From the NCBI GenBank assembly GCA_047639095.1, contig JBLIND010000010.1, forward strand, positions 1 to 38,348: a stretch of 38,348 bases of DNA, written 5' to 3'. Position 1 is the stretch's first letter, and the number at the start of each line of letters is the position of its first letter. Below are positions 10,452 to 36,570 of the stretch, in pieces. This stretch comes from Candidatus Omnitrophota bacterium. Lineage in GTDB: Bacteria; Verrucomicrobiota; Kiritimatiellia; SS1-B-03-39; UBA6053. Below the pieces are notes generated by a model. The model made no database searches and was not told where the DNA came from. It saw nothing but the letters and a program-made list of their open reading frames with translations. The position numbers were made by a program, and so were the translations under genes.

Positions 10452-12557
10452 CTACTCTACCACGATGCGTAGGTATTTTCTCCGCTCGTTCTGGGTCTGC
10501 AAGGTGAGCTGGAGCATTCCGTTTACTTGTTCGATCGTATAATTCGATAAGGGTTCATCGGTCCAGGTTCCGGAAAGGTCTGTCGTTTGCTGGAGGCGAA
10601 GTTGCCCGGGATCGGTTGCTGCGGGAACGAGCACCTCAAAAACCAGGTTGCTGAAGGCATTGCTGAAGACGACATCGCTCAACGAGGGTGGCGGATCGGT
10701 GACCGCGAGAGAAAAAACCGGTCCCCATTCGAGTGAAAAATCATCCCAGACCTGCGCCCGCATATCGAGGGCGTAGGTGCCAGGCGTGTCAGATGACCAT
10801 GAAAAGTTATCGCTATTCGGAACGGCCATCATGGTCGAATTGGTCAATTCCTGCGCATCAGATAAGAGGATTGAATCGATAAACCATCCCAGGTGATCCG
10901 CCGTCCCGACGAAATATACACCGGCCCGACGGTAAACAAAGCGCAGGCGGATGGCCTGACCAGCGTAGGCGTTAAGTGGAACCGTCCGAGTGATGAAATT
11001 GGATTCGCCCGGACCATCTGAACCAGCTTGTTCATAGATTGAATTCCAACTGATTCCCTCATCTGTCGAGACTTCCACGAGGGCAAATTGGGTGGTGGCG
11101 GCCCACCGGAGTTGGCTGCTGAAACTCAACTCGCAGCCCGCTCCCGGAAGAATCACTTTGTCCCATTCAATTTCGTGGTCATCCAGCGGTGTTCCGCTTG
11201 GATGTGCGAGGTGGAAGCTGTGACTGCCCGCTTGAACAACGTTGCTGTTGTGTACCTCATAGGTTCCATCCGTTCGGATGATGATGTTGTCTGTGGTTTC
11301 GGCATCCTCTCCGGATAAGAGGGCCGGCTGACTTAGTCTAACCTGATAGCCGGAGGCAAAGTCCACTTCCGGGTGGGTAAACGCCTGCGGAATGCCGGTT
11401 GAGAGATGGGTGGGTCCAGCGACTGTGAGTTGAACCGTATCCGGACCCAATTGAGATGGGTCGAAGACCGTTACTGTGTAGTTGTATGATTCCGCCGCTC
11501 CGTTTCGGATTATGTTGCTGATTGCGATGGTGTAGGTGGTGTCGACACCCAGGGTGGGCCACTCCGCGAAAAATGCATTGGGGTCCATACTCGCAGGATG
11601 CCAGACCATGGTATTCTCGCCGACCATGGGATCCCCGATGGACGAGCGATGATCGATTACCAGGGGGATGCCTGCGCCAGTTGGGCCCTGCATGCTCACT
11701 ACGGCGGCGGTGAAATCTCCGTCATCGAGCGAAAAGGACCAGCGAGTAGGTGTGATCGGATTTGGGAAATATCCGGGTGGTGGCCAGGCAATGAAAGCTT
11801 CGCGTGTAGTCGGGCGGGGGAGCCCGCCGTCACCGCTGTTAACGACCAACAGACAGTTTGCGGATGGATAACTTCCGCTTGCCGGTACATCACCGCTTGC
11901 CATGGTTTGCGTCTGGGGAAAAAGAATCCACCGCCGATGACCGACACGCGCATTGTTGCTGCCGTTATCCCGCGTCTGACTGCTCAATGCTTCATATCCG
12001 ATATTGCCCAACGAGAGGTTGGATCGCGCAGCTGCCGCCGCACCGATCGCGGAATAACAGAACCAGCTCGGTGGTGGGGAGTGGCTGAGTGCTTCATTTC
12101 GGCTGAACATCAATGCCGCGGCCTGACACTCGACAAGCGCCGCTGGGTTAAACGAAACATCGGCCGGAACACCTGCCAGTGCGCGCGTGGCATTGATTCG
12201 TCGGAGTACCGCGTCCAGAAAGGCGCTCGAAGACTCTCCGGGGATGCAGGCATCCACATCACCGTTCCAACCGATGGGTGTGCCGTTTGAACTGCTGTAG
12301 ACCGCATTGTAAAACGCGCGCACCTCTTCACGGCTTAAGGTATTTATGAACGGGAATCCACCAGTAGCCAGTGGTGCTCCGCGACGGCGAACCTGGTCCG
12401 AGGCCGCAGTCCGTTCAACCGCTACTCCATGGCGAGGTTCCATGGGACGGAGGCGCGGTGGCGTCTGGGCTTGAGACTGGACAATAAACAACCCGGCAAG
12501 CAGGCTGAGGCCGTACCCATTTAGATGCTTCTTTCGAGGCCGAACGGTGGTACCCAT
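10452..12557 (-). CDS. Secreted protein with an N-terminal CAP/SCP/PR-1-like domain and a large beta-rich C-terminal region
   Basis: 701 aa with the signal peptide LSLLAGLFIVQSQAQ. CAP-like blocks: VLRRINATRALAGVPADVSFNPAALVECQAAALMFSRNEALSHSP and ARVGHRRWILFPQTQTMASG (the bacterial SCP-like GHRR motif). The remaining ~450 aa is Ser/Thr/Gly-rich and beta-like. It is convergent with the upstream sulfatase and divergent from the next one. Confidence 0.55.
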   Translation of the reverse strand: MGTTVRPRKKHLNGYGLSLLAGLFIVQSQAQTPPRLRPMEPRHGVAVERTAASDQVRRRGAPLATGGFPFINTLSREEVRAFYNAVYSSSNGTPIGWNGDVDACIPGESSSAFLDAVLRRINATRALAGVPADVSFNPAALVECQAAALMFSRNEALSHSPPPSWFCYSAIGAAAAARSNLSLGNIGYEALSSQTRDNGSNNARVGHRRWILFPQTQTMASGDVPASGSYPSANCLLVVNSGDGGLPRPTTREAFIAWPPPGYFPNPITPTRWSFSLDDGDFTAAVVSMQGPTGAGIPLVIDHRSSIGDPMVGENTMVWHPASMDPNAFFAEWPTLGVDTTYTIAISNIIRNGAAESYNYTVTVFDPSQLGPDTVQLTVAGPTHLSTGIPQAFTHPEVDFASGYQVRLSQPALLSGEDAETTDNIIIRTDGTYEVHNSNVVQAGSHSFHLAHPSGTPLDDHEIEWDKVILPGAGCELSFSSQLRWAATTQFALVEVSTDEGISWNSIYEQAGSDGPGESNFITRTVPLNAYAGQAIRLRFVYRRAGVYFVGTADHLGWFIDSILLSDAQELTNSTMMAVPNSDNFSWSSDTPGTYALDMRAQVWDDFSLEWGPVFSLAVTDPPPSLSDVVFSNAFSNLVFEVLVPAATDPGQLRLQQTTDLSGTWTDEPLSNYTIEQVNGMLQLTLQTQNERRKYLRIVVE

Positions 12558-12671
12558 ATGCTGAGTTTAAATCCGCCAGGCTTCATTGTATAGGCCGTTC
12601 TACTTTTAGACGTTCCGACTTGGCTTGGATACGGAGATTGTTAAAAGTAATTGGATTCAGTGGAGACCCTT

Positions 12672-14738
12672 ATGAGATATCTATATATGCTGTTTAGCCT
12701 TTTCGTCCTCACAACCCATGCGGCGGTTAAACCAAATATCCTTTTTATCTTTTCCGATGACCATGCGTATCAGGCGATCAGTGCCTATGGGCATGGGCTG
12801 AATGAAACACCGAACATCGACCGCATTGCCAAGGAAGGGGTGCGTTTCAATCGGTGTTATGTGAGCAACGCCATTTGCGGACCGATGCGTGCGGTCATTC
12901 AAACCGGCAAATACTCCCACTTGAACGGCTTCCTGATCAATGGGAACAAATTTGATGGCAACCAGTGGACCTTCCCCAAGGAATTGCAGAAAGTGGGTTA
13001 CCAGACGGCCGTGATCGGCAAGTGGCACCTCGGTACGCATATGGAGCCCAAGGGCTTTAACTATTCCGAAGTGCTGATCGATCAGGGCCCGTATTACAAT
13101 CCACCGATGCTGCGTGATGAAAAAGGCGACGGCAACCGGGTGAAGAAGCAATACACCGGGTACACCACGGAGATTATTACGGATCTGGCCCTGGAGTGGC
13201 TCAAAAACCAACGCGATCAGGAAAAGCCGTTCATGTTGATGTATCAACATAAGGCTCCGCACCGGAACTGGGAACCGGGTCCTGATTACCTGCATCTCTA
13301 CGACGATGTCACCTTCCCCGAGCCGGAGTCCTTGTTCGACGATTACACCCATCGAGCCGATCCGGCCCGTGACCAGGATATGTCCATTTCTAAAACCATG
13401 ACTCGGCGGGATCTGAAGCTCGATCCCCCGCGCAATTTTACCCCTGAGCAATTAGCGACCTGGAATGCGGCTTACGAGCCGAAGAACAAAGCCTTCGAGG
13501 CGATGAAACTCGAAGGCCGCGAGCTGATCAGCTGGAAATTTCAGCGCTACATCAAAGACTACCTGCGCTGCATCGCCGCCGTGGATCATGAGGTCGGCAA
13601 AGTCCTCGATTATCTGGATAAGAGCGGCCTGGCGAAGAATACCATCGTCATCTACTGTTCCGATCAGGGCTTTTACCTGGGTGAACACGGCTGGTTCGAC
13701 AAACGATGGATGTATGAAGAATCGTTCCGGACGCCTTTTCTCGTGCGATGGCCCGATGTCGTTGCGCCCGGTCTTGTGAATGAAACCGACATCGTCTCAC
13801 CGGTAGACTTTGCTGCGACGTTTCTCGAGATCGCTGGCGCAGCCAATCCGGGAGACCTCCAGGGTAAATCGTTGATTCCTATCCTCAAAGGTCAGACCCC
13901 GCGCGATTGGCGAAAGTCCTTCTACTATCATTACTACGAGGGTGGGGGACATGGCGTTGCCCGGCATTATGGTGTGTCGAACGGACGCTACAAATTGATC
14001 AACTACTATCAGGATCATGTGAAGCAATGGGAGTTGTTTGACCTTAAATCGGATCCTCAGGAAATGCGCAGCCAATACGAGAATCCCGAATATGCCAAGG
14101 TGAAGGAGGACATGTTCCAGGAACTTCAACGCTTGCGGGTTGAACTGAAATTGCCCGATGAAGATCCGGAGGCGAGTTTCGGAGGCTGGGGGGATCGCAC
14201 CCTGGAGCTTCGCAAGATGGCCAGCGCCGCGAACGTGCCGTTGACGGAGGTCCTCCGCATGCAGGCCGTCGGCGTGGTGAAGAACAAGAAGCCCGATCCG
14301 AGCTTTAAGCCGATCACGGTCGGTGCCTGGATTTCGACTGAACGTTCGGATGGCGTGATCCTTGCCCAGGGCGGAGGCGGTATGGGCTACGCATGCTACC
14401 TGAAAGACGGCTACCTGGTCTTCGGGATCAAAAATGGCGGTTCGTTAAGTGAAGTGAAGTCGAAGGCGAAAATCCCCATGAAGACCCGGACCCATGTGCG
14501 GGCGACCCTGGATGCCGAGCTGAAGCTGACCCTGTTTGTGAATGGGAAACCGGCCGGAATCGGCAAGGGCCGGTTTGTGTCGGGCATCCCAAACGAAGGG
14601 CTGGACGTCGGGGAAGACAGCGGAAGCCTGGTGGGGAACTATACGGATGACAATGTTTTCAAGGGGACGATGAGCGACATTCGGATCTATTGGGGGCGGC
14701 TTGAACAGAAAGAATTAGACGCCTGGGCACATCGTTAA
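12672..14738 (+). CDS. Secreted sulfatase (canonical C-G-P-M-R FGly motif) with a C-terminal LamG/concanavalin-like extension
   Basis: The signal peptide [18 protein letters not shown] points to the ATG at 12672; the ORF track start at 12651 is also possible. Sulfatase blocks [34 protein letters not shown] and VIYCSDQGF. The C-terminal ~200 aa ([19 protein letters not shown]...[11 protein letters not shown]...[10 protein letters not shown]) resembles a LamG-type beta-sandwich. Confidence 0.85.
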
Positions 14739-18172: not shown

Positions 18173-19498
18173 CTACTTAAAAACCTTCAGCGTGTTCGCC
18201 CGGGTGACGGGATACCAGCCATCGATTTGGCCAACCAGTCGCGCAACGATATCCGGGTGTTGAGCTGCCAGGTTCTGCTCTTCGCTTGGATCCGCCAGGA
18301 GATCGTAGAGCTGAGGGCGTTTTTCGGTTCGGGCATGCGTGGAGGTGTACTTGCTCACCTTGCCGTCGTACGTCAGCAGGAGCTTCCATTTACCCTCGAT
18401 GCACCAGCGATAGAGAAGGGTTGCTTCGTGGTCGTCCAGATCCAGCACATCGTGCGCACAGCCTTCACCGAAGACGATGTTGCGTTCCAGGGTTTTCCCG
18501 TCTCGAACAACCGGCATGAGATTCAGCCCCGGGAGATTGGCTGGGATCGTTGCCCCGGCCGCACTCAACATCGTTGGCATGAGGTCGATGCTGCTGATGA
18601 GCTCATCGTGCTTCGAGGGTTTAATTTTTCCCGGCCAATTGAACATGATGGGTGTCCGTATACCCCCTTCATTTGCACTTTGTTTTGAGCGCGGAGCATA
18701 GCCGCCCTTGTTCGGGCTTTGAATCCATCCATTATCCGTAACATAAATGATAAGGGTGTTTTCCCTGAGTTTCTTCTGGTCGAGGTAGCCGACCAGCTCC
18801 CCACAGGTTTCATCAAACCAATCACACATGGCATAGTATCTCGCCTCAAAGGACGACCGGCCTTCGCTTGTGTATTTCTTCAGCAGCCGCGCGGGCGGGT
18901 TGTGTGGGGTGTGAGGGAGAAAGGGCGCGTACCAAACGAAAAAGGGTTTATCCGCCTCGGTCGCTTCATCGATAAAATCAAAAACTGGCGTCATGCCGGT
19001 ACGGCCGATCTTGAGGCCGTCGTCTCCATGACGACCACCCTTTGTCGGAAATCCTCGGGTCATCCCGTGGGTGAAACCGCCGCGCGTGAAATTGCCCTCC
19101 CACCATTTACCACTCTGGTGGCTGAGATAGCCCAGGTCTCCCAACAATTTGGGCACGGTGGGACATTGGTCGATTTTTGAAATCAAGGCGCTGCGCAACT
19201 CTGGTGTATTCGGGTTGGGATCGTTGCCGGTCACGCCGTGCTGGGAGGCATACAGACCGGTGATAATCGTCATCAGTGATGGCCGACACAGTGCGGTTGG
19301 GACATAGCCGCGCGTAAAGGTGGCGCTTTCTGCGGCCAGCTTATCCAAGTGGGGCGTCTCGATGACTTCATGACCCATGAAGCTGTAATCGTTCCAGGCC
19401 TGGTCATCAGAGAGAATCAGGACAATATTCGGACGCGCTGCAGCCCGCAGGGTGGCGACGGTAAAAAGGGCAAGGACTATGAGGTAACATGGTTTCAT
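18173..19498 (-). CDS. Secreted sulfatase with a non-canonical FGly motif C-R-P-S-L (the Arg of C-x-P-x-R is replaced by Leu)
   Basis: 441 aa with the signal peptide MKPCYLIVLALFTVATLRAAA. Sulfatase blocks IVLILSDDQAW, TALCRPSLMTIITGLY (codons tgt cgg cca tca ctg, verified on the minus strand), GKWW and IIYVTDNGW. Confidence 0.85.
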   Translation of the reverse strand: MKPCYLIVLALFTVATLRAAARPNIVLILSDDQAWNDYSFMGHEVIETPHLDKLAAESATFTRGYVPTALCRPSLMTIITGLYASQHGVTGNDPNPNTPELRSALISKIDQCPTVPKLLGDLGYLSHQSGKWWEGNFTRGGFTHGMTRGFPTKGGRHGDDGLKIGRTGMTPVFDFIDEATEADKPFFVWYAPFLPHTPHNPPARLLKKYTSEGRSSFEARYYAMCDWFDETCGELVGYLDQKKLRENTLIIYVTDNGWIQSPNKGGYAPRSKQSANEGGIRTPIMFNWPGKIKPSKHDELISSIDLMPTMLSAAGATIPANLPGLNLMPVVRDGKTLERNIVFGEGCAHDVLDLDDHEATLLYRWCIEGKWKLLLTYDGKVSKYTSTHARTEKRPQLYDLLADPSEEQNLAAQHPDIVARLVGQIDGWYPVTRANTLKVFK

Positions 19499-21828: not shown

Positions 21829-22590
21829 TCACTTCGGCTTTGAAGATCCCTGCTGGGAAAACCGTTTGAGCATGTCGTCCACCCGTCGCTGAATCATCTC
21901 GCTGCGTTTGGCATCATCATCACCCATCATCTGTTCGAGCTTGCCCAGTTCCTGACGCAGCTTTTCGATGTGCTTTCGGCGTTCCGCCTGGCGGCTTTCA
22001 AAAATCCGTGCAACGTGTTGGGTGACGTCCTCGCGAATGGCATCGCGTGCTGCGTCGTCTTCGGCATCCCGATAGGCCTTGGCCAGTTGGGTAAACTGTG
22101 CGTTGATTTTCTCGTAGTCTTTACGCTTGGCATCTTTATCTTCGCTGGAATTGAAGCCCTCATGCCCTCCGCCTCCTCCGCGCATCATGAACCGACCGAT
22201 CATTTCGCGACGCCGCTCTTCCGGAAGGCGGTTCAGCAGATCCGCCATTTCGGGGAAGTCTTTGAAGCGATTTTTAAATTCGCCTTGGTTCAGGCGTTGG
22301 CCGAGGCGCTCTCTGAATGCGGCGGGGTCTTCCTCTTTGAGGCGCTGTAATTCGTCAAAAGCAGCCGGATCGTTTTCCTTGAGGCGGTTCATATACGCGT
22401 CGAGGGGGCGTCGGTTTTTGTTCGGGCTGCCCGCGGGACCATGAAACCCCGGACCTCGTTCGCCTCCGGAATGTTCACCTGGGCGCATGCCGGGGCCGGG
22501 ACGCCGGTCCGGACGCGTGTCCTGCGCTGTCACGCCAAGGGTCAGAATCAAACTGCTGCTGATGAGGAGATATCGCATAGGCCAGTTCAT
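21829..22590 (-). CDS. Periplasmic LTXXQ/Spy-CpxP-like charged helical protein; the last gene of the ECF sigma operon
   Basis: 253 aa with a signal peptide (LLISSSLILTLGVTAQ), then a highly charged helical repeat protein with KEEDPAAF / LxRLxEE-type repeats. Its start overlaps the anti-sigma stop (ATGA at 22587-22590). Confidence 0.5.
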   Translation of the reverse strand: MNWPMRYLLISSSLILTLGVTAQDTRPDRRPGPGMRPGEHSGGERGPGFHGPAGSPNKNRRPLDAYMNRLKENDPAAFDELQRLKEEDPAAFRERLGQRLNQGEFKNRFKDFPEMADLLNRLPEERRREMIGRFMMRGGGGGHEGFNSSEDKDAKRKDYEKINAQFTQLAKAYRDAEDDAARDAIREDVTQHVARIFESRQAERRKHIEKLRQELGKLEQMMGDDDAKRSEMIQRRVDDMLKRFSQQGSSKPK

Positions 22591-23150
22591 GTGTTGGATT
22601 CCAATTGTAGAAGTTCACTGGCGATTTCATCCAGGTCGTTAGGCGTGGGTTCGCCCCAGAAATTTCCGCTGAAAAGCTCGTCGCTGACTTGGGAGATCCT
22701 CGCTTCCAACGCGGTGAATCCCTGGTCCACTTCGTCGTTAACGAGTGCCGCCAGTTCAATGATGGGTTCGGTTGTCATCTCCGGAGTCTCCTGGGCCAAA
22801 GTCGCGGGGTTTGAGGAGAGCAGGGGTTTCACCAGAGTGCCCAGTGCAAAGAGCAGGACGATCGCTGCTGCCAGAGCGAGCAGGGGTTTGAAACGGCCCG
22901 CTGTGTGGCTGTTGGTGGACGTCGCCTGATGCTGTCGGGCAGCTTGATGAATCCGCTCCAGGGTTATTTCGCTCACGTTCGCATCATCGACGGGCAATGA
23001 AGCCGCTTCGCTTATCGTCGCATAGTCCTTGGCGAGGGCGCGCGCATCAGCGTTCTCCGCCAGCCAGTCTTCAAGCTCGACGGACTCCTGCTCGCCCAGT
23101 TCGCCACTTTGACGCAATAGAATGTACGTTTCCAGCTGTTCTTGTTTCAT
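22587..23150 (-). CDS. Anti-sigma factor (single-pass membrane protein)
   Basis: 187 aa. The N-terminal cytoplasmic anti-sigma-like helix (LETYILLRQSGELGEQESVELEDWLAENADARALAKDY) is followed by a TM helix LLALAAAIVLLFALGTLV and a periplasmic tail. A 4-nt ATGA overlap links it to the sigma factor stop at 23147-23150. Confidence 0.55.
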   Translation of the reverse strand: MKQEQLETYILLRQSGELGEQESVELEDWLAENADARALAKDYATISEAASLPVDDANVSEITLERIHQAARQHQATSTNSHTAGRFKPLLALAAAIVLLFALGTLVKPLLSSNPATLAQETPEMTTEPIIELAALVNDEVDQGFTALEARISQVSDELFSGNFWGEPTPNDLDEIASELLQLESNT

Positions 23151-23749
23151 AGTACTTTCCTGTCGTTAAAATCTGCGTAGTCCGCTTTCAAAGCTTCACG
23201 GAGGTGGTTGAGTGCGTATTGCATCCGGCCCAGGGCCGTATTGATGGAGCAGTCCATAATGACCGCGATCTCCTTGAACGGAAGCTGACCTTCGGTACGC
23301 ATCAAAAATACCTCGCGCTGTTCAAGCGGCAGGAGGTCGACGGCTGCACGTATGCGTTCGCCGAGCTCCAGGCCTTCTGTAATCCGAACCGGATCCAGTC
23401 CCGCAGCGGCCGTCCGGTCCTCGATGGCATTCTCGCCGTCGGCATCCCCATGGATGCTCGCGACGGGCTTTTTTTTGCGCGCCCGGTCGATGATGTGGTT
23501 GTGGGTAATCCGAAACATCCAGCTGAGGAATTTTTGATCCTTATAGCTGTCAAAACTTCGGATAGCCTTGAACCAGACCTCTTGAAATATTTCTTCCGCG
23601 TCACTTTTGTTCTCAATCATTCGCAGGATGTATCCGAAAAGAGGGCGCCGGTAGTGCTCCACCAGCAAACCCAAGGCGTTTACATCGCCGTTTCTGTATG
23701 CATCCAGCCACATCTTTTCAGGGGCATCCATTTGGTCTTCTAAAGGCAT
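23147..23749 (-). CDS. ECF (sigma-70 family, RpoE-like) RNA polymerase sigma factor
   Basis: 200 aa. Region-2 block FGYILRMIENKSDAEEIFQEVWFKAIRSFDSYK...SWMFRITHNHIIDRARK and region-4 block LPLEQREVFLMRTEGQLPFKEIAVIMDCSINTALGRMQYAL (an HTH). Confidence 0.85.
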   Translation of the reverse strand: MPLEDQMDAPEKMWLDAYRNGDVNALGLLVEHYRRPLFGYILRMIENKSDAEEIFQEVWFKAIRSFDSYKDQKFLSWMFRITHNHIIDRARKKKPVASIHGDADGENAIEDRTAAAGLDPVRITEGLELGERIRAAVDLLPLEQREVFLMRTEGQLPFKEIAVIMDCSINTALGRMQYALNHLREALKADYADFNDRKVL

Positions 23750-30185: not shown

Positions 30186-31085
30186 TTGTCTGCTACTTGT
30201 GTGGCGAACCAAAGAGAACGCGTGGAAACCAATACTGAAAAAATCTATTTACGTACCGCTGAAAAGGAAATCGGCCCCTTCACGCTGGAGGAAGCCGCGC
30301 TTTGCCTGGCTACGGGGCAAGTGAAAGAGCTCTCTCCGGCTCGCTTGGAAGGCGAGGAAACCAGTCGTGCGCTGAAATTCCATCCCATCTACGCAAAGAT
30401 GATAACGATTCAGGTCAAAATCCCCAAGCCGGATAAAAAAGCGGCGGGACCTAAACCCAAGCACATGGAGAGCAACTTTAAGCCGGAGACCAGTGGGAAC
30501 GTAAAGGCCTTAATCATCATTCTCGTCTTGATCGCTTTGATCCCCCTGTCGAAATTCGGATTGGGATTGCTGTCGAATGGCAAAGCCAAAAAAGAGGCCG
30601 ATGCATTTAATCTCGCATTCAGCTCCCAAGCCAGTGGGGACACGGCCGCTGCCCAGATGGCGTACGTTGCCATCCTCGAAGACGAAAAGAATGTAGAAGA
30701 TGGCGATCTGCTGTACCGAGTTCGTACGCACCTCGCCGTTATTATCCTTGATAAGAATACGATGGGGGCCATCGGTCAGCTGAGGAAGATTCCGCGTGGT
30801 GTGGCGGTACCAAATGCCGATACCGAGTTTGCCAAAAACTTTTCAGGTCTGTTCTCAAAACAGCATCCCGGATATCAGCAAAGGTACTGGGATCACCGGA
30901 AGAAATTTCCGGATCATTATCCGGGCCTGGTAGCAGATGCCTGGTTGTACGCCGGAAAAATGCCGGGCATCAAAGCGAATCCCGGTGAGCGTCAAAAGGT
31001 GCTGCAGAAGATAAGTAGCCTCAATGCGAATCCGGCCGCGGTCACCGATGCTCAGGCCAGCGCATCTGAGCCTTCCAGCACCTGA
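30186..31085 (+). CDS. Hypothetical membrane protein with an N-terminal DUF4339/GYF-like cytoplasmic domain
   Basis: 299 aa. IYLRTAEKEIGPFTLEEAALCLATGQVKELSPARLEGEETSRAL resembles the short GYF-like DUF4339 module. It has one TM helix (ALIIILVLIALIPL) and a C-terminal soluble region. The start is uncertain. Confidence 0.45.
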   Translation: MSATCVANQRERVETNTEKIYLRTAEKEIGPFTLEEAALCLATGQVKELSPARLEGEETSRALKFHPIYAKMITIQVKIPKPDKKAAGPKPKHMESNFKPETSGNVKALIIILVLIALIPLSKFGLGLLSNGKAKKEADAFNLAFSSQASGDTAAAQMAYVAILEDEKNVEDGDLLYRVRTHLAVIILDKNTMGAIGQLRKIPRGVAVPNADTEFAKNFSGLFSKQHPGYQQRYWDHRKKFPDHYPGLVADAWLYAGKMPGIKANPGERQKVLQKISSLNANPAAVTDAQASASEPSST

Positions 31086-31089
31086 GGTG

Positions 31090-31497
31090 TTACTTCAGGT
31101 CTACGCCACCCCACACAATGGTGTATTTTTCGCAATGGATGACCAGACTCTTGTAGTCATCCAACTTTACACCTGATGGCAAGGGGTACCGTTGCTCCCC
31201 CTTGGCGCTCTGCAGCTCGCCCACCAGTTTCCCCGTGGCCTCGACCGGATCTTTCTTCCCGAGTTCGCCCATCGGCTTGGCGTGGAGAAAGAGTTTAAGG
31301 TCCGGCCCCTTGGACGTCTTGAAATCCGATTGCAAAATCAATGAGGTGAGCCCTGCCTCTTCAACGATCTTCCAACTGCCCGAGGTCTTTTTGCTCTTGT
31401 TCACCCAGGTCTCTCCCGCGCGATGGATTTGCTCCGCCGATTGGGCCGAGGACAGGGTGATGAACAGGCTGGAGAGCATGATGAGTAGGGTGCGCAT
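31090..31497 (-). CDS. DM13-domain secreted protein
   Basis: 135 aa with the signal peptide MRTLLIMLSSLFITLSSAQS. SGSWKIVEEAGLTSLILQSDFKTSKGPDLKLFL and HCEKYTIVWGG fit the DM13 beta domain (G.v.i...g...L.l..dF.t..GPdL.v.L). Confidence 0.55.
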   Translation of the reverse strand: MRTLLIMLSSLFITLSSAQSAEQIHRAGETWVNKSKKTSGSWKIVEEAGLTSLILQSDFKTSKGPDLKLFLHAKPMGELGKKDPVEATGKLVGELQSAKGEQRYPLPSGVKLDDYKSLVIHCEKYTIVWGGVDLK

Positions 31498-31659
31498 GAG
31501 AATTTCCTTCGTTTAGCTTCTTTTGCTGACTTTGTCGAAAAGGTCAGACTCACCTTACGCATTTAATCGTGTAAGGATCCGGTTCGTGTCTCGACTGCAG
31601 ACACATGAGATTACGTGTAGCCTTGTGTGGACCTTTACAGAATCGGTATAAAGACATTC

Positions 31660-32031
31660 ATGCTTCACGTTGAAGAAATTTGCACCAACCTGGCAATTGT
31701 GCTGATGGCGGTAGGGGTGCTGGTCATCATGTTGGGTGGGGTGAAAACACTCATCGGTTATGCGGTCTACGAATTCCGCCATCTATTCTCATTGAAAAAT
31801 GAACTCGCCCTCGACGAGCTCCGCAGCAATTTTGGTGCGTATCTGTTACTCGGCCTGGAATTCTCTGTTGCCGCCGATATCATTGCAACCTTTGTCGAGC
31901 CGACGCAGGAAAAGCTCATTGCGCTGGTGGTTTTAGTGATCATTCGAACCCTGATATCCTATTTCATCGGCAAGGAACGCATCGAAGTCCGACAGGAGTT
32001 TGCCGAAGTGAACCACGAGGAAATGCTTTAA
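31660..32031 (+). CDS. DUF1622-family small membrane protein
   Basis: The conserved LLLGLEFSVAADIIATF block in a 3-4 TM protein. The start is taken at MLHVEEICTNL (31660); the track start at 31627 is possible. Its stop overlaps the next gene's ATG by 1 nt (TAATG at 32029-32033). Confidence 0.55.
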   Translation: MLHVEEICTNLAIVLMAVGVLVIMLGGVKTLIGYAVYEFRHLFSLKNELALDELRSNFGAYLLLGLEFSVAADIIATFVEPTQEKLIALVVLVIIRTLISYFIGKERIEVRQEFAEVNHEEML

Positions 32032-33662
32032 TGCCTGATGATACCCGTCCCGTAGCCCTCGCGCCCCTGGGTGATATTCAGGATCGGAAACCCCACCACG
32101 CCAGAGTGGGGGGAGTCGACCTCGTCATCGTGCAATACGACGACAACATTACCGTCTTGTACGGACGTTGCGCGCATCGCGGTGCCTTGATGTCGGATGG
32201 GTATGTCGAGGGCAACAATCTCATCTGTGGCGTACACTACTGGGATTACCGCCTGGATACCGGCATCAGTGAATACAACAACGCCGAACAGCTGGCAAAG
32301 TTCACCTCCTGGGTGAAAGATGATCAGGTCTGGGTCGATGGCAATGAAATTGCCGCGTGGGAGCGGGAGCATCCGCAGCCGTTCAATCATGACAGCTACC
32401 AGGGAGCCTATCAGGATCCGACGGGCACGTCCGACGAACCCCATGTCAAACTTATCCGAAAACTGGCCAACGATGGGCTGGAAAAGATGGGGCATCACGG
32501 CCCGTCTGGTGCGATGGGCGTTTCCCGCAACGTGTTGCCCGCCTGGGATGACATCCAGTTTATCACTGCTCAGCTCCACAAGCTGCCTCTGTTGGATGAG
32601 GTGCCGGTTCACACTGGCGTGGTCATCGGACCCGCAGCTAAAAAACCGCTCCATCTGGATATTCCGCTGTTTGTCTCTGACATGAGCTTTGGCGCGCTTT
32701 CCGAAGAAGCGAAGGTCGCCCTGTCGAAGGGGGCCGAGCTGGCAGGCACAGGAATCTGCAGCGGCGAAGGGGGCATGCTGCCGGAAGAGCACGCTGCGAA
32801 CAGTCGGTACTTTTACGAGCTGGCTTCGGGTCGCTTCGGCTTTTCCATGGAAAAGCTGGCGAAGGTCCAGGCCTTCCACTTCAAGTGCGGCCAGGCCGCG
32901 AAGACCGGCACCGGCGGTCATTTGCCGGGCAACAAGGTCCTGGGCAAAATTGCCGAAGTACGCGGACTCCCGGAAGGCGAAGCCGCGGTCTCGCCGGCTC
33001 GGTTTCCCGACTGGGACGACATCAAGTACTATATCGATTTCACCGCCCAGGTTCGTGAGTACACGGGAGGTATCCCGATTGGTTACAAACTCTCTGCTCA
33101 ACACATCGAAAAGGATATTGATACCGCGGTAGAAGCAGGTGCCGATTACATCATCCTGGATGGCCGGGGTGGGGGCACCGGTTCCGCTCCACTGATCTTT
33201 CGCGACAACATTTCCGTTCCGACCATTCCCGCCCTGGCCCGGGCGCACAAACATCTGCTTGCACTGGGGGTAAAAGATCGGGTCAGCCTGATCATCACGG
33301 GTGGACTCCGGGTCCCGGCAGATTTCGCCAAAGCCCTGGCGCTGGGCGCTGACGCCATTGCCGTATCGAACGCCGCTCTGCAGGCCATTGGCTGTCTGGG
33401 CATGCGTGCCTGTCATACGAACAATTGCCCGGTCGGGATTGCGACCCAGCGCGAAGATCTGCGAGCACGTCTCGAAATCGGCATCGCCGCCAAACGCCTC
33501 GAGCGCTTTTTTAACGCATCAACCGAACTGGTGGGCGTGTTGGCCCGCGCCTGTGGCCATGATGACCTGACCCAGTTCAGTCAAGAAGACCTCACCACCT
33601 TTGATCGCGATATGGCTTACCTGACGGGCATTGCGTATGGTGGCGTGGTCCCTTTGTCATGA
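32031..33662 (+). CDS. Rieske [2Fe-2S] domain fused to a glutamate-synthase (GltS) FMN-binding-domain-like oxidoreductase
   Basis: 543 aa. The N-terminal Rieske ligands CAHRG...(17)...CGVHYWDY form C-x-H...C-x-x-H. The core matches GltS domain 2: FVSDMSFGALS, GICSGEGG, KCGQAAKTGTGGHLPG, ILDGRGGGTGSAP, ITGGLR and NCPVGIATQ (the FMN/Fe-S region). Confidence 0.8.
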   Translation: MPDDTRPVALAPLGDIQDRKPHHARVGGVDLVIVQYDDNITVLYGRCAHRGALMSDGYVEGNNLICGVHYWDYRLDTGISEYNNAEQLAKFTSWVKDDQVWVDGNEIAAWEREHPQPFNHDSYQGAYQDPTGTSDEPHVKLIRKLANDGLEKMGHHGPSGAMGVSRNVLPAWDDIQFITAQLHKLPLLDEVPVHTGVVIGPAAKKPLHLDIPLFVSDMSFGALSEEAKVALSKGAELAGTGICSGEGGMLPEEHAANSRYFYELASGRFGFSMEKLAKVQAFHFKCGQAAKTGTGGHLPGNKVLGKIAEVRGLPEGEAAVSPARFPDWDDIKYYIDFTAQVREYTGGIPIGYKLSAQHIEKDIDTAVEAGADYIILDGRGGGTGSAPLIFRDNISVPTIPALARAHKHLLALGVKDRVSLIITGGLRVPADFAKALALGADAIAVSNAALQAIGCLGMRACHTNNCPVGIATQREDLRARLEIGIAAKRLERFFNASTELVGVLARACGHDDLTQFSQEDLTTFDRDMAYLTGIAYGGVVPLS

Positions 33663-33696
33663 ACGCAGCTGGAGAGATGTGAAGGACGTCGTGGAA

Positions 33697-33951
33697 ATGG
33701 TATTAGGCATCACCGGGATTTACCTCGCACTTGGGTTGGTGTTTGCCATTCCCTTCGTGTTCAAAGGGGCCGCCCGGATCGATCCCGCCGCGAAGGGATC
33801 AAGCTGGGGTTTCAAGCTTTTGGTCATTCCAGGTGTGATGGCCCTATGGCCGTTGCTGGCCAGGCGGTGGCTGAGTGGAAAAACCCAACCTCCTGAGGAA
33901 TGTGGGCCTCATCGCAACTGTGGCACCTGCAGCAAAGGTGGAGGCGCGTGA
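33697..33951 (+). CDS. Small two-TM membrane protein (hypothetical)
   Basis: MVLGITGIYLALGLVFAIPFVF...FKLLVIPGVMALWPLLA. It is tightly packed between operon genes. The start is taken after the upstream stop at 33662; the longer frame to 33631 overlaps that gene. Confidence 0.35.
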   Translation: MVLGITGIYLALGLVFAIPFVFKGAARIDPAAKGSSWGFKLLVIPGVMALWPLLARRWLSGKTQPPEECGPHRNCGTCSKGGGA

Positions 33952-33965
33952 ATCGTCCTCGGCGG

Positions 33966-34109
33966 ATGGCGCATCGCGTCGTATGGTGGGTGATCCTGGT
34001 GGCCGTCCCGGTCTTTATTTATGTCGCCATTACCGGACGCCAGCCCATTGAGCCCATGGACGCTCTGCCGGACCTGAGCATCCCGGTGACGGGAGACCAG
34101 CAGCCATGA
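33966..34109 (+). CDS. Very small single-TM protein (hypothetical)
   Basis: MAHRVVWWVILVAVPVFIYVAITG... Its stop overlaps the next gene's ATG (ATGA at 34106-34109). Support is weak (size only). Confidence 0.25.
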   Translation: MAHRVVWWVILVAVPVFIYVAITGRQPIEPMDALPDLSIPVTGDQQP

Positions 34110-35158
34110 GTCACGCGTATAAAGCCGTCGGATGGAACCGCCAGAAGAAGATCTACGACCGCATCCTGCTGGCGGGCGTGCTGCTTTACCTGGTGCTCTT
34201 TGTTGGTTTAGGCATGGTCTTGAATCCGAGTGCCGCGATTGAGACCATGTTGATTCGCGGACTGGGAACATGCGCGTTTGTCCTGTTGCATTTGATCCTG
34301 TCCATTGGACCCATGGCCCGGCTGGACCGGCGATGGTTACCGCTCCTCTACAACCGACGCCACATGGGCGTAACCCTGTTCATGCTGGGCTTGTTGCATG
34401 GGTTGTTTGCGCTGGTGCAGTACCACGGCTTTGGCGATACCAACCCTCTGGTGAGTTTGTTCTCAGCGAATACAAATTTCAGTAGCGTCTCCCAATTTCC
34501 GTTTCAGCCTCTGGGCTTTTTTGCCCTGGTGATTCTGTTTCTCATGGCCGCCACCAGTCATGATTTCTGGCTGGCCAATCTTTCCGCTCCGGTGTGGAAG
34601 AGCATTCATATGCTGGTCTATCTGGCGTACGTTTTGTTGCTGGCGCACGTCTTCCTCGGCTTCCTCCAGGCCGAGACCAGTCCGGTGCTGACCGGGCTGT
34701 TTGCCTTGGGAGCGGCCTGGATCAGTATCATCCACGTGATTTCGGGGAATAAAGAGGCCCGGATGGATCGGGAAGGTGATTTCAGAAAAGACGAAGACGG
34801 TTATCTGGAGGTTTGTGGCATCGATGAAATTCCGGAGATGCGTGCAAAGGTCTTCGTCCTCTCAGGGGACCGCGTGGCGGTGTTTAAATACGAGGGGAAG
34901 ATTTCAGCGATCTCCAACGCCTGCCAGCATCAGAACGGCCCCCTGGGTGAAGGCCGAATTATCGGTGGTTTCGTCACCTGTCCCTGGCATGGCTATCAGT
35001 ACGAGCCCGATACGGGTTTGTCGCCGCCACCCTTTACGGAGAAGGTGCCGACCTTTAATGTGAAGGTTGTAGCCGGTCGGGTCTGGGTCGATCCAAACCC
35101 AAATCCTGCAGGCACGCGGGTCGAACCCGCGTTGGTCCAACCGGAGGCCGGGTCATGA
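34106..35158 (+). CDS. Ferric-reductase-like (FRD/MsrQ-type, predicted dihaem) 6-TM domain fused to a C-terminal Rieske [2Fe-2S] domain
   Basis: 350 aa with six hydrophobic helices. Paired His are positioned as in FRD haem ligands (LLHLILS...HMGVTL; SHDFWLA...IHMLVYLAYVLLLAHVF). The C-terminal CQHQNGPL...CPWHGYQY is a Rieske C-x-H/C-x-x-H pair. An ATGA overlap links it to the next gene. Confidence 0.7.
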   Translation: MSHAYKAVGWNRQKKIYDRILLAGVLLYLVLFVGLGMVLNPSAAIETMLIRGLGTCAFVLLHLILSIGPMARLDRRWLPLLYNRRHMGVTLFMLGLLHGLFALVQYHGFGDTNPLVSLFSANTNFSSVSQFPFQPLGFFALVILFLMAATSHDFWLANLSAPVWKSIHMLVYLAYVLLLAHVFLGFLQAETSPVLTGLFALGAAWISIIHVISGNKEARMDREGDFRKDEDGYLEVCGIDEIPEMRAKVFVLSGDRVAVFKYEGKISAISNACQHQNGPLGEGRIIGGFVTCPWHGYQYEPDTGLSPPPFTEKVPTFNVKVVAGRVWVDPNPNPAGTRVEPALVQPEAGS

Positions 35159-35919
35159 GTCGAAAAGGGGAGGACGATTTCTACGTCGGGTACATGAAGA
35201 CGGCTCCCGCAGCGCTAGGCGCGGTCATGCGGAAATGGGTGGTCCTTATGATCATCATTACGGCGATTGTTGCCACGGCGATAAGCCTCAGCCAAAAGCC
35301 TTTTCGCACAGGCGTTTTCGAGTTTGGAACGGTCGACGCCTACCTCGGAATCGTTCGACTGGACCCCGTGCCCGTCGCCATGGCCAACAAGCGATGGGCG
35401 GACGTGTCGTTTGACGAAAAGCCGTACTATCTCCTGGTGAACCAGGGGAAATTCGGCGCGGCAGCACTTTTTGAAGGCATGGATGGCGCGTGCGTCAGCT
35501 TTGACGCTACCCGGATCTATCGCGATGGACAGCAAATGCTGGAAGTGGTTCCGGGTTCCGTGGTGAAGGACGGGGCGTCCTTCACGGATGACGCGCTGAC
35601 CCGTGTGATCGGACAACATACCTTTCGCGGCGAAATCGTAGACAGTAAGTGTTACCTGGGCGTCATGAATCCCGGCAACCTGAAGACCCATAAGGCCTGT
35701 GCGATCCGCTGCATATCCGGCGGTGTTCCGCCTGTGCTGGTGGTTCGTGATATCGATGACGACGTACGCTACCTCATCCTCATTGGACCCAACGGCGAAG
35801 CCATGAACGAGCATGTGCTGGATAAGATCGCCGAGCCAGTCGAGATTTCAGGAACCGTCGAAGAGCGGGGCGGTTTTTTTTATCTGCGAGCCGGCCCCGA
35901 TGCGATCAAGCGAATGTGA
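35155..35919 (+). CDS. Hypothetical membrane-anchored protein with a Cys cluster (CYLGV...HKACAIRCISGG)
   Basis: 254 aa with an N-terminal TM (WVVLMIIITAIVATAI), then a soluble domain. It is the last gene of the coupled operon. No motif I recognise. Confidence 0.45.
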   Translation: MSRKGEDDFYVGYMKTAPAALGAVMRKWVVLMIIITAIVATAISLSQKPFRTGVFEFGTVDAYLGIVRLDPVPVAMANKRWADVSFDEKPYYLLVNQGKFGAAALFEGMDGACVSFDATRIYRDGQQMLEVVPGSVVKDGASFTDDALTRVIGQHTFRGEIVDSKCYLGVMNPGNLKTHKACAIRCISGGVPPVLVVRDIDDDVRYLILIGPNGEAMNEHVLDKIAEPVEISGTVEERGGFFYLRAGPDAIKRM

Positions 35920-36038
35920 CGGGAACGGTTAGGCCGCTCTGTAGCATGGCTGTCCCCAGCCGTGGCCCCATATCCGACATTCATACGGTCGTGCACAATT
36001 GAACTGCACAGGACGGAAGTTTTTGAGGGGTGCTTTTG

Positions 36039-36070
36039 CTGTCCCCGGGTGCAAGGGACATGGGGGACAG
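36039..36070. other. Stem-loop CTGTCCCC-N16-GGGGACAG in the convergent intergenic gap; a third CTGTCCCC copy lies at 35949-35956
   Basis: Perfect 8-bp arms. It lies between the + strand operon end (35919) and the exbD end (36127). No flanking U-tract, so it is not a canonical intrinsic terminator. Confidence 0.3.
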
Positions 36071-36126
36071 ATAACGCCAAGCAACTCCTGCCTCGTCGCA
36101 AGGCTTTTATCTATCCTACGTTGGGC

Positions 36127-36570
36127 TTAGTCGCCCATACCGAAGGTCATGTGCTTCAGGCCGGCGGCCTGGCATGCATTCATGACATCGACCACGCGCT
36201 GATGCAGGGTGTCGCCGGTAGCCTGGATGGTCACCAGGGCCTTGGTCTGCTGGCTGTCGCTGGCTTCTTTGTACTTTTTCAACGTAGCGACAAGGCGGGG
36301 CAGGTCACGACCGCCGTCGGTTCCAAATTGCTCGTTGTTCAGGAACACCAGGCCTTCCGCATCCAGATCAATGATCTGTTCGGCGGGCATTTTGACTTCC
36401 TTGGATTGCTTGACCGTTCCCGGGAGCTGGATGCCGATGTCGGACTCGGGAAGTTTGAGCGTCATGGTGACGATGAAGTAGATCAGCAGCAGGAAAACCA
36501 CGTCGATCAACGAGGAGATTTGCAACTCCTCGCTGGCTTCATTCAATTCGTCTGATCCGTCTTCAAACAT
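36127..36570 (-). CDS. exbD: ExbD/TolR-family biopolymer transport protein (second paralogue)
   Basis: 147 aa. SSLIDVVFLLLIYFIVT TM, then a periplasmic domain. It sits immediately after another ExbD and ExbB. Confidence 0.8.
   Translation of the reverse strand: MFEDGSDELNEASEELQISSLIDVVFLLLIYFIVTMTLKLPESDIGIQLPGTVKQSKEVKMPAEQIIDLDAEGLVFLNNEQFGTDGGRDLPRLVATLKKYKEASDSQQTKALVTIQATGDTLHQRVVDVMNACQAAGLKHMTFGMGD

Follow-up and report, generated by a model that had tools for sequence, protein, structure and literature searches.

A conserved four-gene FRD-Rieske membrane module and its facultative Rieske-GltS partner: a possible transmembrane electron conduit in a Kiritimatiellia genome

Ferric reductase domain (FRD) proteins, among them NOX, FRE, STEAP and MsrQ, are the main known route by which single electrons cross a membrane to an outside acceptor. 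To our knowledge, the bacterial members that have been characterised are MsrQ and a few NOX enzymes. Here, we describe a six-gene operon, g1 to g6, at positions 31660-35919 on the + strand of a contig from a metagenome-assembled genome of the Kiritimatiellia (Candidatus Omnitrophota bacterium, GCA_047639095.1, contig JBLIND010000010.1); the whole stretch of DNA analysed, 38,348 bp, is referred to as the window. Its gene g5 encodes an FRD membrane domain fused to a Rieske domain and belongs to a conserved four-gene unit, g3-g4-g5-g6, which we call module A. The neighbouring g2 encodes a soluble enzyme that joins another Rieske domain to an FMN domain of the glutamate synthase (GltS) type. We tentatively read the operon as a transmembrane electron conduit with one cytoplasmic feeder enzyme. 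The parts are known domain types; their assembly and function are undescribed in the literature that we found.

A literature search on Rieske+GltS, Rieske+FRD/MsrQ and Rieske+PoxB combinations and on DUF1622 returned a single relevant item, the listing of an FRD architecture, model M4, in which a bacterial FRD occurs together with Rieske (and FMN) domains (Zhang et al. 2013, PMC3591440). Model M4 is a catalogue entry that gives no neighbourhood, partner subunits or function (PMC3591440). A first-pass annotation of this DNA, made from the sequence alone, had not recognised the gene combination as a described complex; this stands for the assembly, of which we found no published account, but not for the FRD plus Rieske architecture, which was already catalogued.

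The closest described systems each share part of this design. The NOX/FRE long forms (csNOX5, SpNOX, NOX2) have in common with g5 four haem histidines on transmembrane (TM) helices TM3 and TM5 and a C-terminal cytoplasmic module for electron input. In g5, a ferredoxin-type Rieske domain of ~100 amino acids (aa) replaces the FAD/NADPH domain, so that a separate donor would be needed, and module A has three extra obligate small subunits, g3, g4 and g6. The spacing of the TM3 histidines is 12 in g5, compared to what we take to be 14 in NOX2. MsrQ (YedZ) is an FRD haem membrane protein that relays electrons to a periplasmic partner, and three of its haem histidines align with those of g5; by comparison, g5 has a fourth, inner TM3 histidine (Leu in MsrQ), a fused Rieske domain and no MsrP partner, as no MsrP molybdoenzyme gene was found in the operon or its immediate flanks. 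Rieske ferredoxins (TodB, CarAc, NDO ferredoxin, BphF) and NirD match the Rieske domains of g5 and g2 by sequence, and that of g5 also structurally, and lead us to expect a one-electron shuttle role with docking onto another Rieske centre. These ferredoxins are free shuttles, whereas here the domain is fused to a haem protein, to a flavoenzyme and, in neighbouring genomes, to a thiamine diphosphate (ThDP) enzyme, and there is no oxygenase component. The bc1 and b6f complexes hold the same cofactor set as is predicted for g5, namely one [2Fe-2S] Rieske cluster and two b haems in a membrane protein. In contrast to these complexes, the FRD fold is not homologous to cytochrome b, the Rieske domain of g5 is predicted to be cytoplasmic and lacks a Tat signal, and no Q-cycle architecture is evident. 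Module A appears to work like a split NOX/FRE or MsrQ-type conduit while being a member of neither group, since g5 scores 40.9 bits against the NCBIfam MsrQ equivalog NF003831, below its cutoff of 130, and has neither an MsrP partner nor an FAD/NADPH domain.

The genes and domains of the operon are listed here, with the basis of each assignment in brackets.

31660-32031, + strand: g1, DUF1622 small membrane protein, 123 aa (Pfam PF07784)
32031-33662, + strand: g2, soluble Rieske + GltS-type FMN enzyme, 543 aa (Pfam)
32052-32297, + strand: Rieske domain of g2, ligands C47-x-H49 and C66-x2-H69 (Pfam, family conservation)
32559-33560, + strand: putative FMN (GltS domain-2) catalytic domain of g2 (HMMER alignment to 1llw/1ea0)
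33393-33428, + strand: [3Fe-4S] motif of g2, C455-x5-C461-x4-C466-P (aligns with GltS cluster cysteines)
33679-33951, + strand: g3, small membrane protein, 84-90 aa, two hydrophobic segments (homologues upstream of g5)
33948-34109, + strand: g4, single-pass membrane protein, 53 aa (overlaps, shared N-terminal motif)
34106-35158, + strand: g5, FRD::Rieske fusion, 350 aa (Pfam)
34139-34759, + strand: predicted transmembrane haem domain of g5, aa 12-218 (invariant His, hhalign to MsrQ)
34805-35056, + strand: Rieske domain of g5, aa 234-317, C273-x-H275 and C292-x2-H295 (invariant ligands)
35155-35919, + strand: g6, anchored protein, 254 aa, two OB-like beta-barrels (AlphaFold2 model)
35632-35733, + strand: invariant Cys3/His/Met motif of g6 (53-sequence alignment)

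All six open reading frames (ORFs) that the first-pass annotation had placed here are present, and Pfam confirmed the domains that it named (DUF1622, Rieske, Glu_synthase and Ferric_reduct). Its junctions were correct where it gave overlaps: the g1 stop overlaps the g2 start in TAATG at 32029-32033, as read from the sequence, and ORF coordinates and sequence place ATGA at 34106-34109 (g4/g5) and at 35155-35158 (g5/g6). The g3/g4 boundary, which it had taken for a gap, is an additional 4-nucleotide (nt) overlap, GTGA at 33948-33951, between the g3 stop and a GTG start of g4. Overlaps of 1-4 nt are present at four of the five gene junctions, and the translational coupling of the six genes that had been proposed is real. 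The g4 start is most likely GTG 33948 because it restores the N-terminal motif of the family and equals the 53-aa call of NCBI. For g3, the start is most likely GTG 33679 (90 aa; 17 nt past the g2 stop) or ATG 33697 (84 aa), and probably the former; in the relatives L167 and L168 the spacing from g2 to g3 is 18 and 23 nt, respectively, similar to the 17 nt at GTG 33679. A scan of 31000-36300 found no promoter-like sites and terminator-like sites at background level, and an Rfam scan of 30900-36300 gave no match at E <= 1 and therefore no riboswitch clue. A 462-aa ORF on the - strand at 32028-33416 was treated as a shadow of g2.

The Pfam matches of g5 are to Ferric_reduct PF01794 (2.5e-13, 50.6 bits against a cutoff of 28, aa 53-178) and to Rieske (2e-14). 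An AlphaFold2 model of g5 (pLDDT 84.6) shows a beta-rich domain after six long helices, and its fold matches are the TM domains of NOX5, STEAP and NOX2 and the Rieske ferredoxins; g5 has the six-transmembrane NOX/STEAP fold by which membership of the FRD superfamily is judged. A PDB sequence search with the TM region alone returned nothing even at E <= 10. The g5 family comprises at least 8000 clusters at 90% identity. H86 and H98 on TM3 and H168 and H181 on TM5 are invariant in the sequences aligned, as are H152 and H210. In an hhalign comparison with Escherichia coli MsrQ, H98, H168 and H181 align with H91, H151 and H164, respectively, and H86 stands opposite a Leu. Because three histidines align with MsrQ and H86 occupies the inner TM3 position, g5 carries the complete four-His pattern, and binding of two b-type haems is predicted. 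The first-pass annotation had proposed a six-helix di-haem domain, and the four histidines are indeed at canonical positions, with no failure of spacing. This four-His pattern is associated with the di-haem FRD long forms, whereas YedZ has three (Zhang et al., PMC3591440). We propose H86/H168 as ligands of an inner haem and H98/H181 as ligands of an outer haem.

Several features bear on where the Rieske domain of g5 lies. Across the family, the mean numbers of K+R in successive loops are 3.3, 0.4, 4.3, 0.7, 1.2, 0.2 and 3.3. This alternation gives a predicted topology with both termini inside and thus a cytoplasmic Rieske domain. The number of helices is even, and g5 contains no twin-arginine motif. 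Ligands C273, H275, C292 and H295 are invariant, and the nearest solved relatives of the domain are the Rieske ferredoxins of oxygenase systems. Pfam found no FAD_binding_8 or NAD_binding_6 match at the C-terminus, where the Rieske domain stands.

Neither a signal peptide nor a membrane segment is present in the soluble enzyme g2, and its Rieske domain, like that of g5, is placed in the cytoplasm. Pfam assigns aa 8-89 to Rieske (5e-13) and aa 177-510 to Glu_synthase PF01645 (1.4e-92), and the closest solved structures are the FMN domains of GltS alpha subunits. In an HMMER residue alignment with the ferredoxin-dependent GltS of Synechocystis, E246, Q288, K291 and R311 of g2 correspond to E903, Q969, K972 and R992, residues that we take to line the FMN/2-oxoglutarate site, and H297 replaces Q978, the His being kept across the g2 family. 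In an alignment of 69 family members, each equivalent of a GltS site residue, and also H297, is either invariant or conserved to at least 95%. C455, C461 and C466 align with the [3Fe-4S] cysteines of GltS and are invariant in the same 69 sequences, and the Rieske ligands are conserved in at least 95% of them; in both g2 and g5 the Cys/His spacing of the Rieske ligands is canonical. The FMN TIM-barrel, the [3Fe-4S] motif and the four site residues are common to g2, GltS domain 2, archaeal-type stand-alone GltB and MgsC, and g2 belongs to the GltS FMN-domain superfamily. It differs from GltS in the conserved His at the position of Q978 and in its N-terminal Rieske domain, which replaces the amidotransferase, central and GXGXG domains, so that three of the four domains of the glutamate synthase (GOGAT) large subunit are absent; it scores 151 bits against NCBIfam GltB (NF008730), where the cutoff is 1047. 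The retention of the GltS substrate-site residues suggests that the substrate of g2 is glutamate/2-oxoglutarate-like. Homologues of g2 were matched in at least 588 species, with 66-74% identity among the 80 loci kept. One of them, in a Kiritimatiellae metagenome-assembled genome (GCA_012103575.1; L085:5910-7347), consists of two overlapping ORFs, a Rieske ORF of 243 aa and a Glu_synthase ORF of 250 aa, which may reflect a frameshift, an assembly error or gene decay.

We compared gene neighbourhoods in two samples. The first, seeded with g5, came from a metagenome scan and is mostly from soil. The second, seeded with g2, came from a genome collection with one genome per species; its 80 loci, from the at least 588 species matched, represent Gamma- and Alphaproteobacteria, Acidobacteriota, Planctomycetota, Nitrospinota, Poribacteria, Marinimicrobia, Actinomycetota and one cyanobacterium, and neighbours were counted within 6 kb of g2. 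In the g5-seeded sample, g3 is present in 59 of 59 loci with at least 700 nt upstream, and g6 in 59 of 59 with at least 800 nt downstream. Module A is therefore a conserved four-gene unit with obligate linkage. The association with g2 is looser:

Full-length g5 within 6 kb of g2: 17 of 80 loci
Rieske::PoxB-like ThDP enzyme within 6 kb of g2: 28 of 80 loci
Both g5 and the Rieske::ThDP enzyme near g2: 12 of 80 loci
NhaP-type cation/proton antiporter near g2: 24 of 80 loci
DUF5996 near g2: 11-14 of 80 loci
DUF1622 near g2: 3-4 of 80 loci

Where g5 is near g2, 15 of the 17 loci include g6 and 15 include g3. Adjacency of g2 and module A spans Gamma- and Alphaproteobacteria, Acidobacteriota and Planctomycetota and takes three arrangements: immediately co-directional, with the ThDP gene between, or divergent. 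By our estimate, chance would produce far fewer than one such locus, because the 12-kb interval searched is set against a genome of a few Mb. Among six close relatives of this g5 that were looked up by exact protein, five have g2 next to module A. Two of these relatives, L167 and L168, hold all six families in the order g2-g3-g4-g5-g6-DUF1622, with DUF1622 moved to the 3' side. Co-occurrence of the genes elsewhere, on which the first-pass annotation made its reading depend, is thus observed. Its single six-gene unit has to be divided: only g3-g4-g5-g6 is conserved as such, g2 is a recurrent, facultative partner of module A, and DUF1622 is a sporadic accessory of variable position. DUF1622 lies 3' of g6 in L167 and L168, immediately precedes g3 in a few soil loci and was found in 3 of 40 module-A loci. 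The match of g1 itself to DUF1622 exceeds the gathering score (PF07784, 2.1e-21, 76.1 bits against a cutoff of 24).

The other members of module A, g3, g4 and g6, match no Pfam or NCBIfam family. The g6 family comprises 3555 sequences at 90% clustering, all named hypothetical and none with a Pfam domain, and 2555 clusters at 50% identity; g6 itself is 100% identical to the NCBI entry 'hypothetical protein ACI9TH_000258'. In its AlphaFold2 model (pLDDT 87.2), a single TM helix is followed by two OB-like barrels. The family shares the motif G-E-I-V-D-S-K-C-x-x-G-x-M-x-P-...-H-x-x-C-A-x-x-C-I-x-G-G-x-P-P. Within it, E160, D163, C166, M171, H179, C182 and C186 do not vary across an alignment of 53 sequences whose mean column identity is 51%. 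The three Cys with His and Met form a candidate metal or redox site. In view of the Cys/His/Met chemistry and the lack of a Tat signal, this would more likely be a metal site (copper, iron or zinc) or a redox-active cysteine than an Fe-S cluster. The conserved N-terminal peptide (FYxGY) is cytoplasmic by prediction, and in 72% of members more K+R lie in the N-terminal flank of the helix than in the C-terminal one. In-frame FRD-Rieske-g6 fusions of ~600-630 aa (P0030, P0070, P0288, P0295 and P0404, separate clusters at 50% identity) put the N-terminus of g6 on the side of the Rieske domain, which is the cytoplasmic side, and so predict a periplasmic location for the OB domains. The first-pass annotation had called g6 a Cys-cluster membrane protein; the anchor and the three-Cys site hold, and the protein is better described by its tandem OB folds, predicted to lie in the periplasm, and its Cys3/His/Met site.

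In g4, the motif [IL]xPLRxxHRxxF-TM is common across loci, with R-x-x-H-R at the cytoplasmic end of the helix. The family occurs in two lengths that share this N-terminal R-x-x-H-R + TM motif: a short form of ~50 aa, as in this operon, and a long form of ~150-170 aa, which adds a predicted periplasmic tail and is carried by the closest relatives L167 and L168. The gap from g3 to g5 is bimodal in the g5-seeded loci L087-L166, at ~150 nt or ~460 nt, in keeping with the two lengths of g4. Members of the g4 cluster with 481-497 aa are unrelated; they carry a radical-SAM-type CxxxCxxC motif and are a clustering artefact. The public name of g4, 'Ni,Fe-hydrogenase I cytochrome b subunit', is rejected, as it rests on a 16-bit partial match. 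The C-terminal tail of g3 (33880-33951) has a Cys/His-rich stretch, EECGPHRNCGTCSKGG, which is absent from the g3 homologues inspected (e.g., L081).

One interpretation of these findings, which we favour tentatively, is that module A is a four-subunit inner-membrane assembly that carries electrons outward and is fed by g2. The FMN of g2 would take two electrons from a glutamate/2-oxoglutarate-like substrate, and g2 would split the pair by way of two of its own centres, the [3Fe-4S] cluster and the Rieske cluster. Because g5 has no dehydrogenase domain, it needs a separate donor, and g2 is the sole candidate within the operon; it would take over, in trans, the part that the FAD/NADPH dehydrogenase domain plays in NOX-type enzymes. 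Delivery from g2 to g5 would be Rieske-to-Rieske. Transfer from a Rieske ferredoxin to a Rieske centre is standard in Rieske oxygenase systems. Single electrons would thus enter g5 at its cytoplasmic ferredoxin-type Rieske cluster and pass to the inner haem b (H86/H168) and the outer haem b (H98/H181), like in NOX, FRE and MsrQ, and from there to a periplasmic partner, most likely g6 through its invariant Cys3/His/Met site, with g3 and g4 as small obligate membrane subunits. That g2 and g5 make contact, which way the electrons flow, what g2 acts on, what the terminal acceptor is and what g6 does are all inferred. In other genomes, the Rieske::PoxB-like ThDP enzyme would be an apparent second, parallel feeder. 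PoxB-type enzymes, the closest characterised relatives of this enzyme, are obligate electron donors to the membrane; since they are, and since Rieske::PoxB genes are present in 12 of the 17 loci in which g2 and module A adjoin, parallel Rieske-tagged dehydrogenases may feed one sink.

Several observations weigh against this conduit. Among soil-dominated module-A loci, g2 is present in only 1 of 16 with 5 kb on both sides and only 2 of 40 with 2.5 kb upstream, and a short-chain dehydrogenase/reductase (SDR) gene lies directly upstream of soil module A instead (22 of 30 loci). Conversely, 63 of the 80 g2 loci have no module A nearby, and in 16 loci the Rieske::ThDP enzyme but not module A accompanies g2. 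GltS FMN domains usually run in the reductive direction, and no sequence feature fixes the direction of electron flow. Since g2 is mostly found without module A and more often keeps company with the Rieske::ThDP enzyme, these two enzymes could equally well form a closed Rieske-to-Rieske redox pair in the cytoplasm.

Reverse flow or a closed circuit would make g2 a reductive, ammonia-dependent glutamate synthase-like enzyme that is fed through its Rieske domain, usually by the Rieske::PoxB-like protein acting as a 2-oxoacid oxidase, with module A as an alternative membrane-linked source or an overflow sink. The reductive physiology of the GltS FMN domain, the retained equivalents of E903, Q969, K972 and R992, the [3Fe-4S] motif and the Rieske::ThDP genes that adjoin g2, 16 of the 28 without module A nearby, all fit such a circuit, and PoxB-type enzymes are strong reductants. 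We nevertheless consider it rather unlikely: a tblastn search found no Rieske::ThDP gene in the window, where g2 is coupled to module A only, and flow from b haems to a low-potential Rieske or FMN centre would be uphill, requiring a periplasmic donor of very low potential. In addition, all characterised FRD proteins known to us move electrons outward.

Alternatively, two independent systems may share the operon, module A being an envelope-stress or lipid redox module with a general cytoplasmic donor and g2 being unrelated, with no direct exchange with g5. The soil loci lend this some appeal: the dominant neighbours of module A there are SDR, PF13444, YHS, DoxX, DinB-like, TANGO2 and VTT/DedA genes, often with an extracytoplasmic function (ECF) sigma/anti-sigma pair, and g2 is not among them, while g2 has neighbours of its own (NhaP, Rieske::ThDP and DUF5996). 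What makes independence unlikely in our view is that the adjacency recurs in at least four phyla or classes and in three gene orders, that the six-family set is repeated in L167 and L168, and that three co-clustering enzymes share a ferredoxin-type Rieske domain, which is hard to explain without a common electron-transfer partner.

It is very improbable that the names given by NCBI and JGI are right and that g5 is the MsrQ (YedZ) of a periplasmic methionine-sulfoxide reductase and g2 the N-methylglutamate synthase subunit C. The FRD fold is shared and g5 has a weak match to the MsrQ model, but this match is far under the cutoff, the operon has no MsrP/molybdoenzyme gene, MsrQ lacks the fourth haem His and the Rieske domain of g5, and the window ORFs scanned with Pfam include no mgsA/mgsB-type genes (GATase_2, GXGXG). 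As far as we know, MgsC has no Rieske domain. The public name of g5, 'sulfoxide reductase heme-binding subunit YedZ', is misleading for these same reasons of score and missing MsrP partner, and the JGI name of g2, 'methylamine-glutamate N-methyltransferase subunit C', is unsupported, as neither mgsA/mgsB nor gmaS/mgd genes are among those ORFs.

The system should therefore be redrawn as an obligate four-gene membrane module with facultative Rieske-tagged feeder enzymes. The g5 and g6 families span many phyla and settings from marine to soil, and g5, now mis-annotated as YedZ, comes with three invariant partners for which neither Pfam nor NCBIfam has a family. Two components are uncharacterised, namely the g6 family and, as an enzyme, the Rieske-GltS branch. 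If the conduit is real, the fused ferredoxin-type Rieske domain would be a docking plug between a metabolic dehydrogenase and a membrane conduit, a new input logic for FRD conduits, and both an orphan GltS FMN branch found in at least 588 species and the Rieske-fused PoxB-like enzymes would gain a function. Cultured carriers include Roseibium denhamense JCM 10543, Roseibium sp. TrichSKD4, Hoeflea poritis and Pelagibius sp. We further speculate, as a doubtful extension, that there is an unrecognised electron-export pathway, a 'Rieske relay' that uses neither NAD(P)H nor quinones. Rieske-plugged FMN and ThDP enzymes, which together could take an amino acid oxidatively to the acid with one carbon fewer, would pass electrons directly to the NOX-like di-haem protein and on to g6. 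As a new class of periplasmic Cys3/His/Met OB-fold protein, g6 would reduce a metal ion or repair oxidised envelope components under ECF sigma control.

The loci compared here share further genes. The Rieske::PoxB-like ThDP protein is ~659 aa long (TPP_enzyme_N/M/C; L060:8483-10462, and also L005, L014, L016, L031, L033, L065, L078 and others). Its closest solved relative is the E. coli pyruvate dehydrogenase [cytochrome] (3eya, 4e-64), and we found no literature on this architecture. In L065 (4684-5943) and 23 other loci, g2 is directly preceded by a co-directional NhaP/CPA1-type antiporter gene. In several Alphaproteobacteria, a divergent pair of an ECF sigma factor and a zf-HC2 anti-sigma factor precedes the NhaP gene, which suggests that the whole cluster is under stress regulation. 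A DUF5996 protein of ~284 aa (L063:9639-10493) recurs directly downstream of g2 or of the Rieske::ThDP gene; the literature searched contains no paper that mentions DUF5996.

Soil loci (L091, L092, L099, L100, L109 and others; e.g., L092:9286-16000) share a larger neighbourhood around module A, in the order SDR, g3-g4-g5-g6, a PF13444 N-acyl-amino-acid synthase (OlsB/FeeM-like), a secreted YHS protein, DoxX, and DinB-like, TANGO2-like and VTT/DedA proteins. Soil module-A loci often carry an ECF sigma/anti-sigma pair. This neighbourhood may point to a connection with lipid, thiol or metal stress. In L168 and L167, hydantoinase A/B genes lie just downstream of the six-gene set on the opposite strand; this family includes the glutamate-producing 5-oxoprolinase. 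In L168, a full-length GOGAT large subunit is encoded as well, 2.6 kb upstream. These flanks (L168:1-1975 and 10469-14073; L167:8330-11922) could reflect a glutamate-metabolism context or coincidence.

Within the window, a secreted DM13 protein ('Electron transfer DM13', PF10517, 3.4e-17) is encoded at 31090-31497 on the - strand, divergent from the operon. We rejected it as a periplasmic partner; tblastn found no homologue in any of 166 related loci, and its adjacency is for this reason probably a coincidence. Farther away, an ECF sigma factor gene (23147-23749, - strand) lies ~8 kb upstream of the operon with a small unannotated ORF just downstream of it, and two sulfatases, one with a Laminin_G_3 domain, are encoded elsewhere on the contig (listed coordinates 12651-14738, 18173-19498 and 22587-23749).

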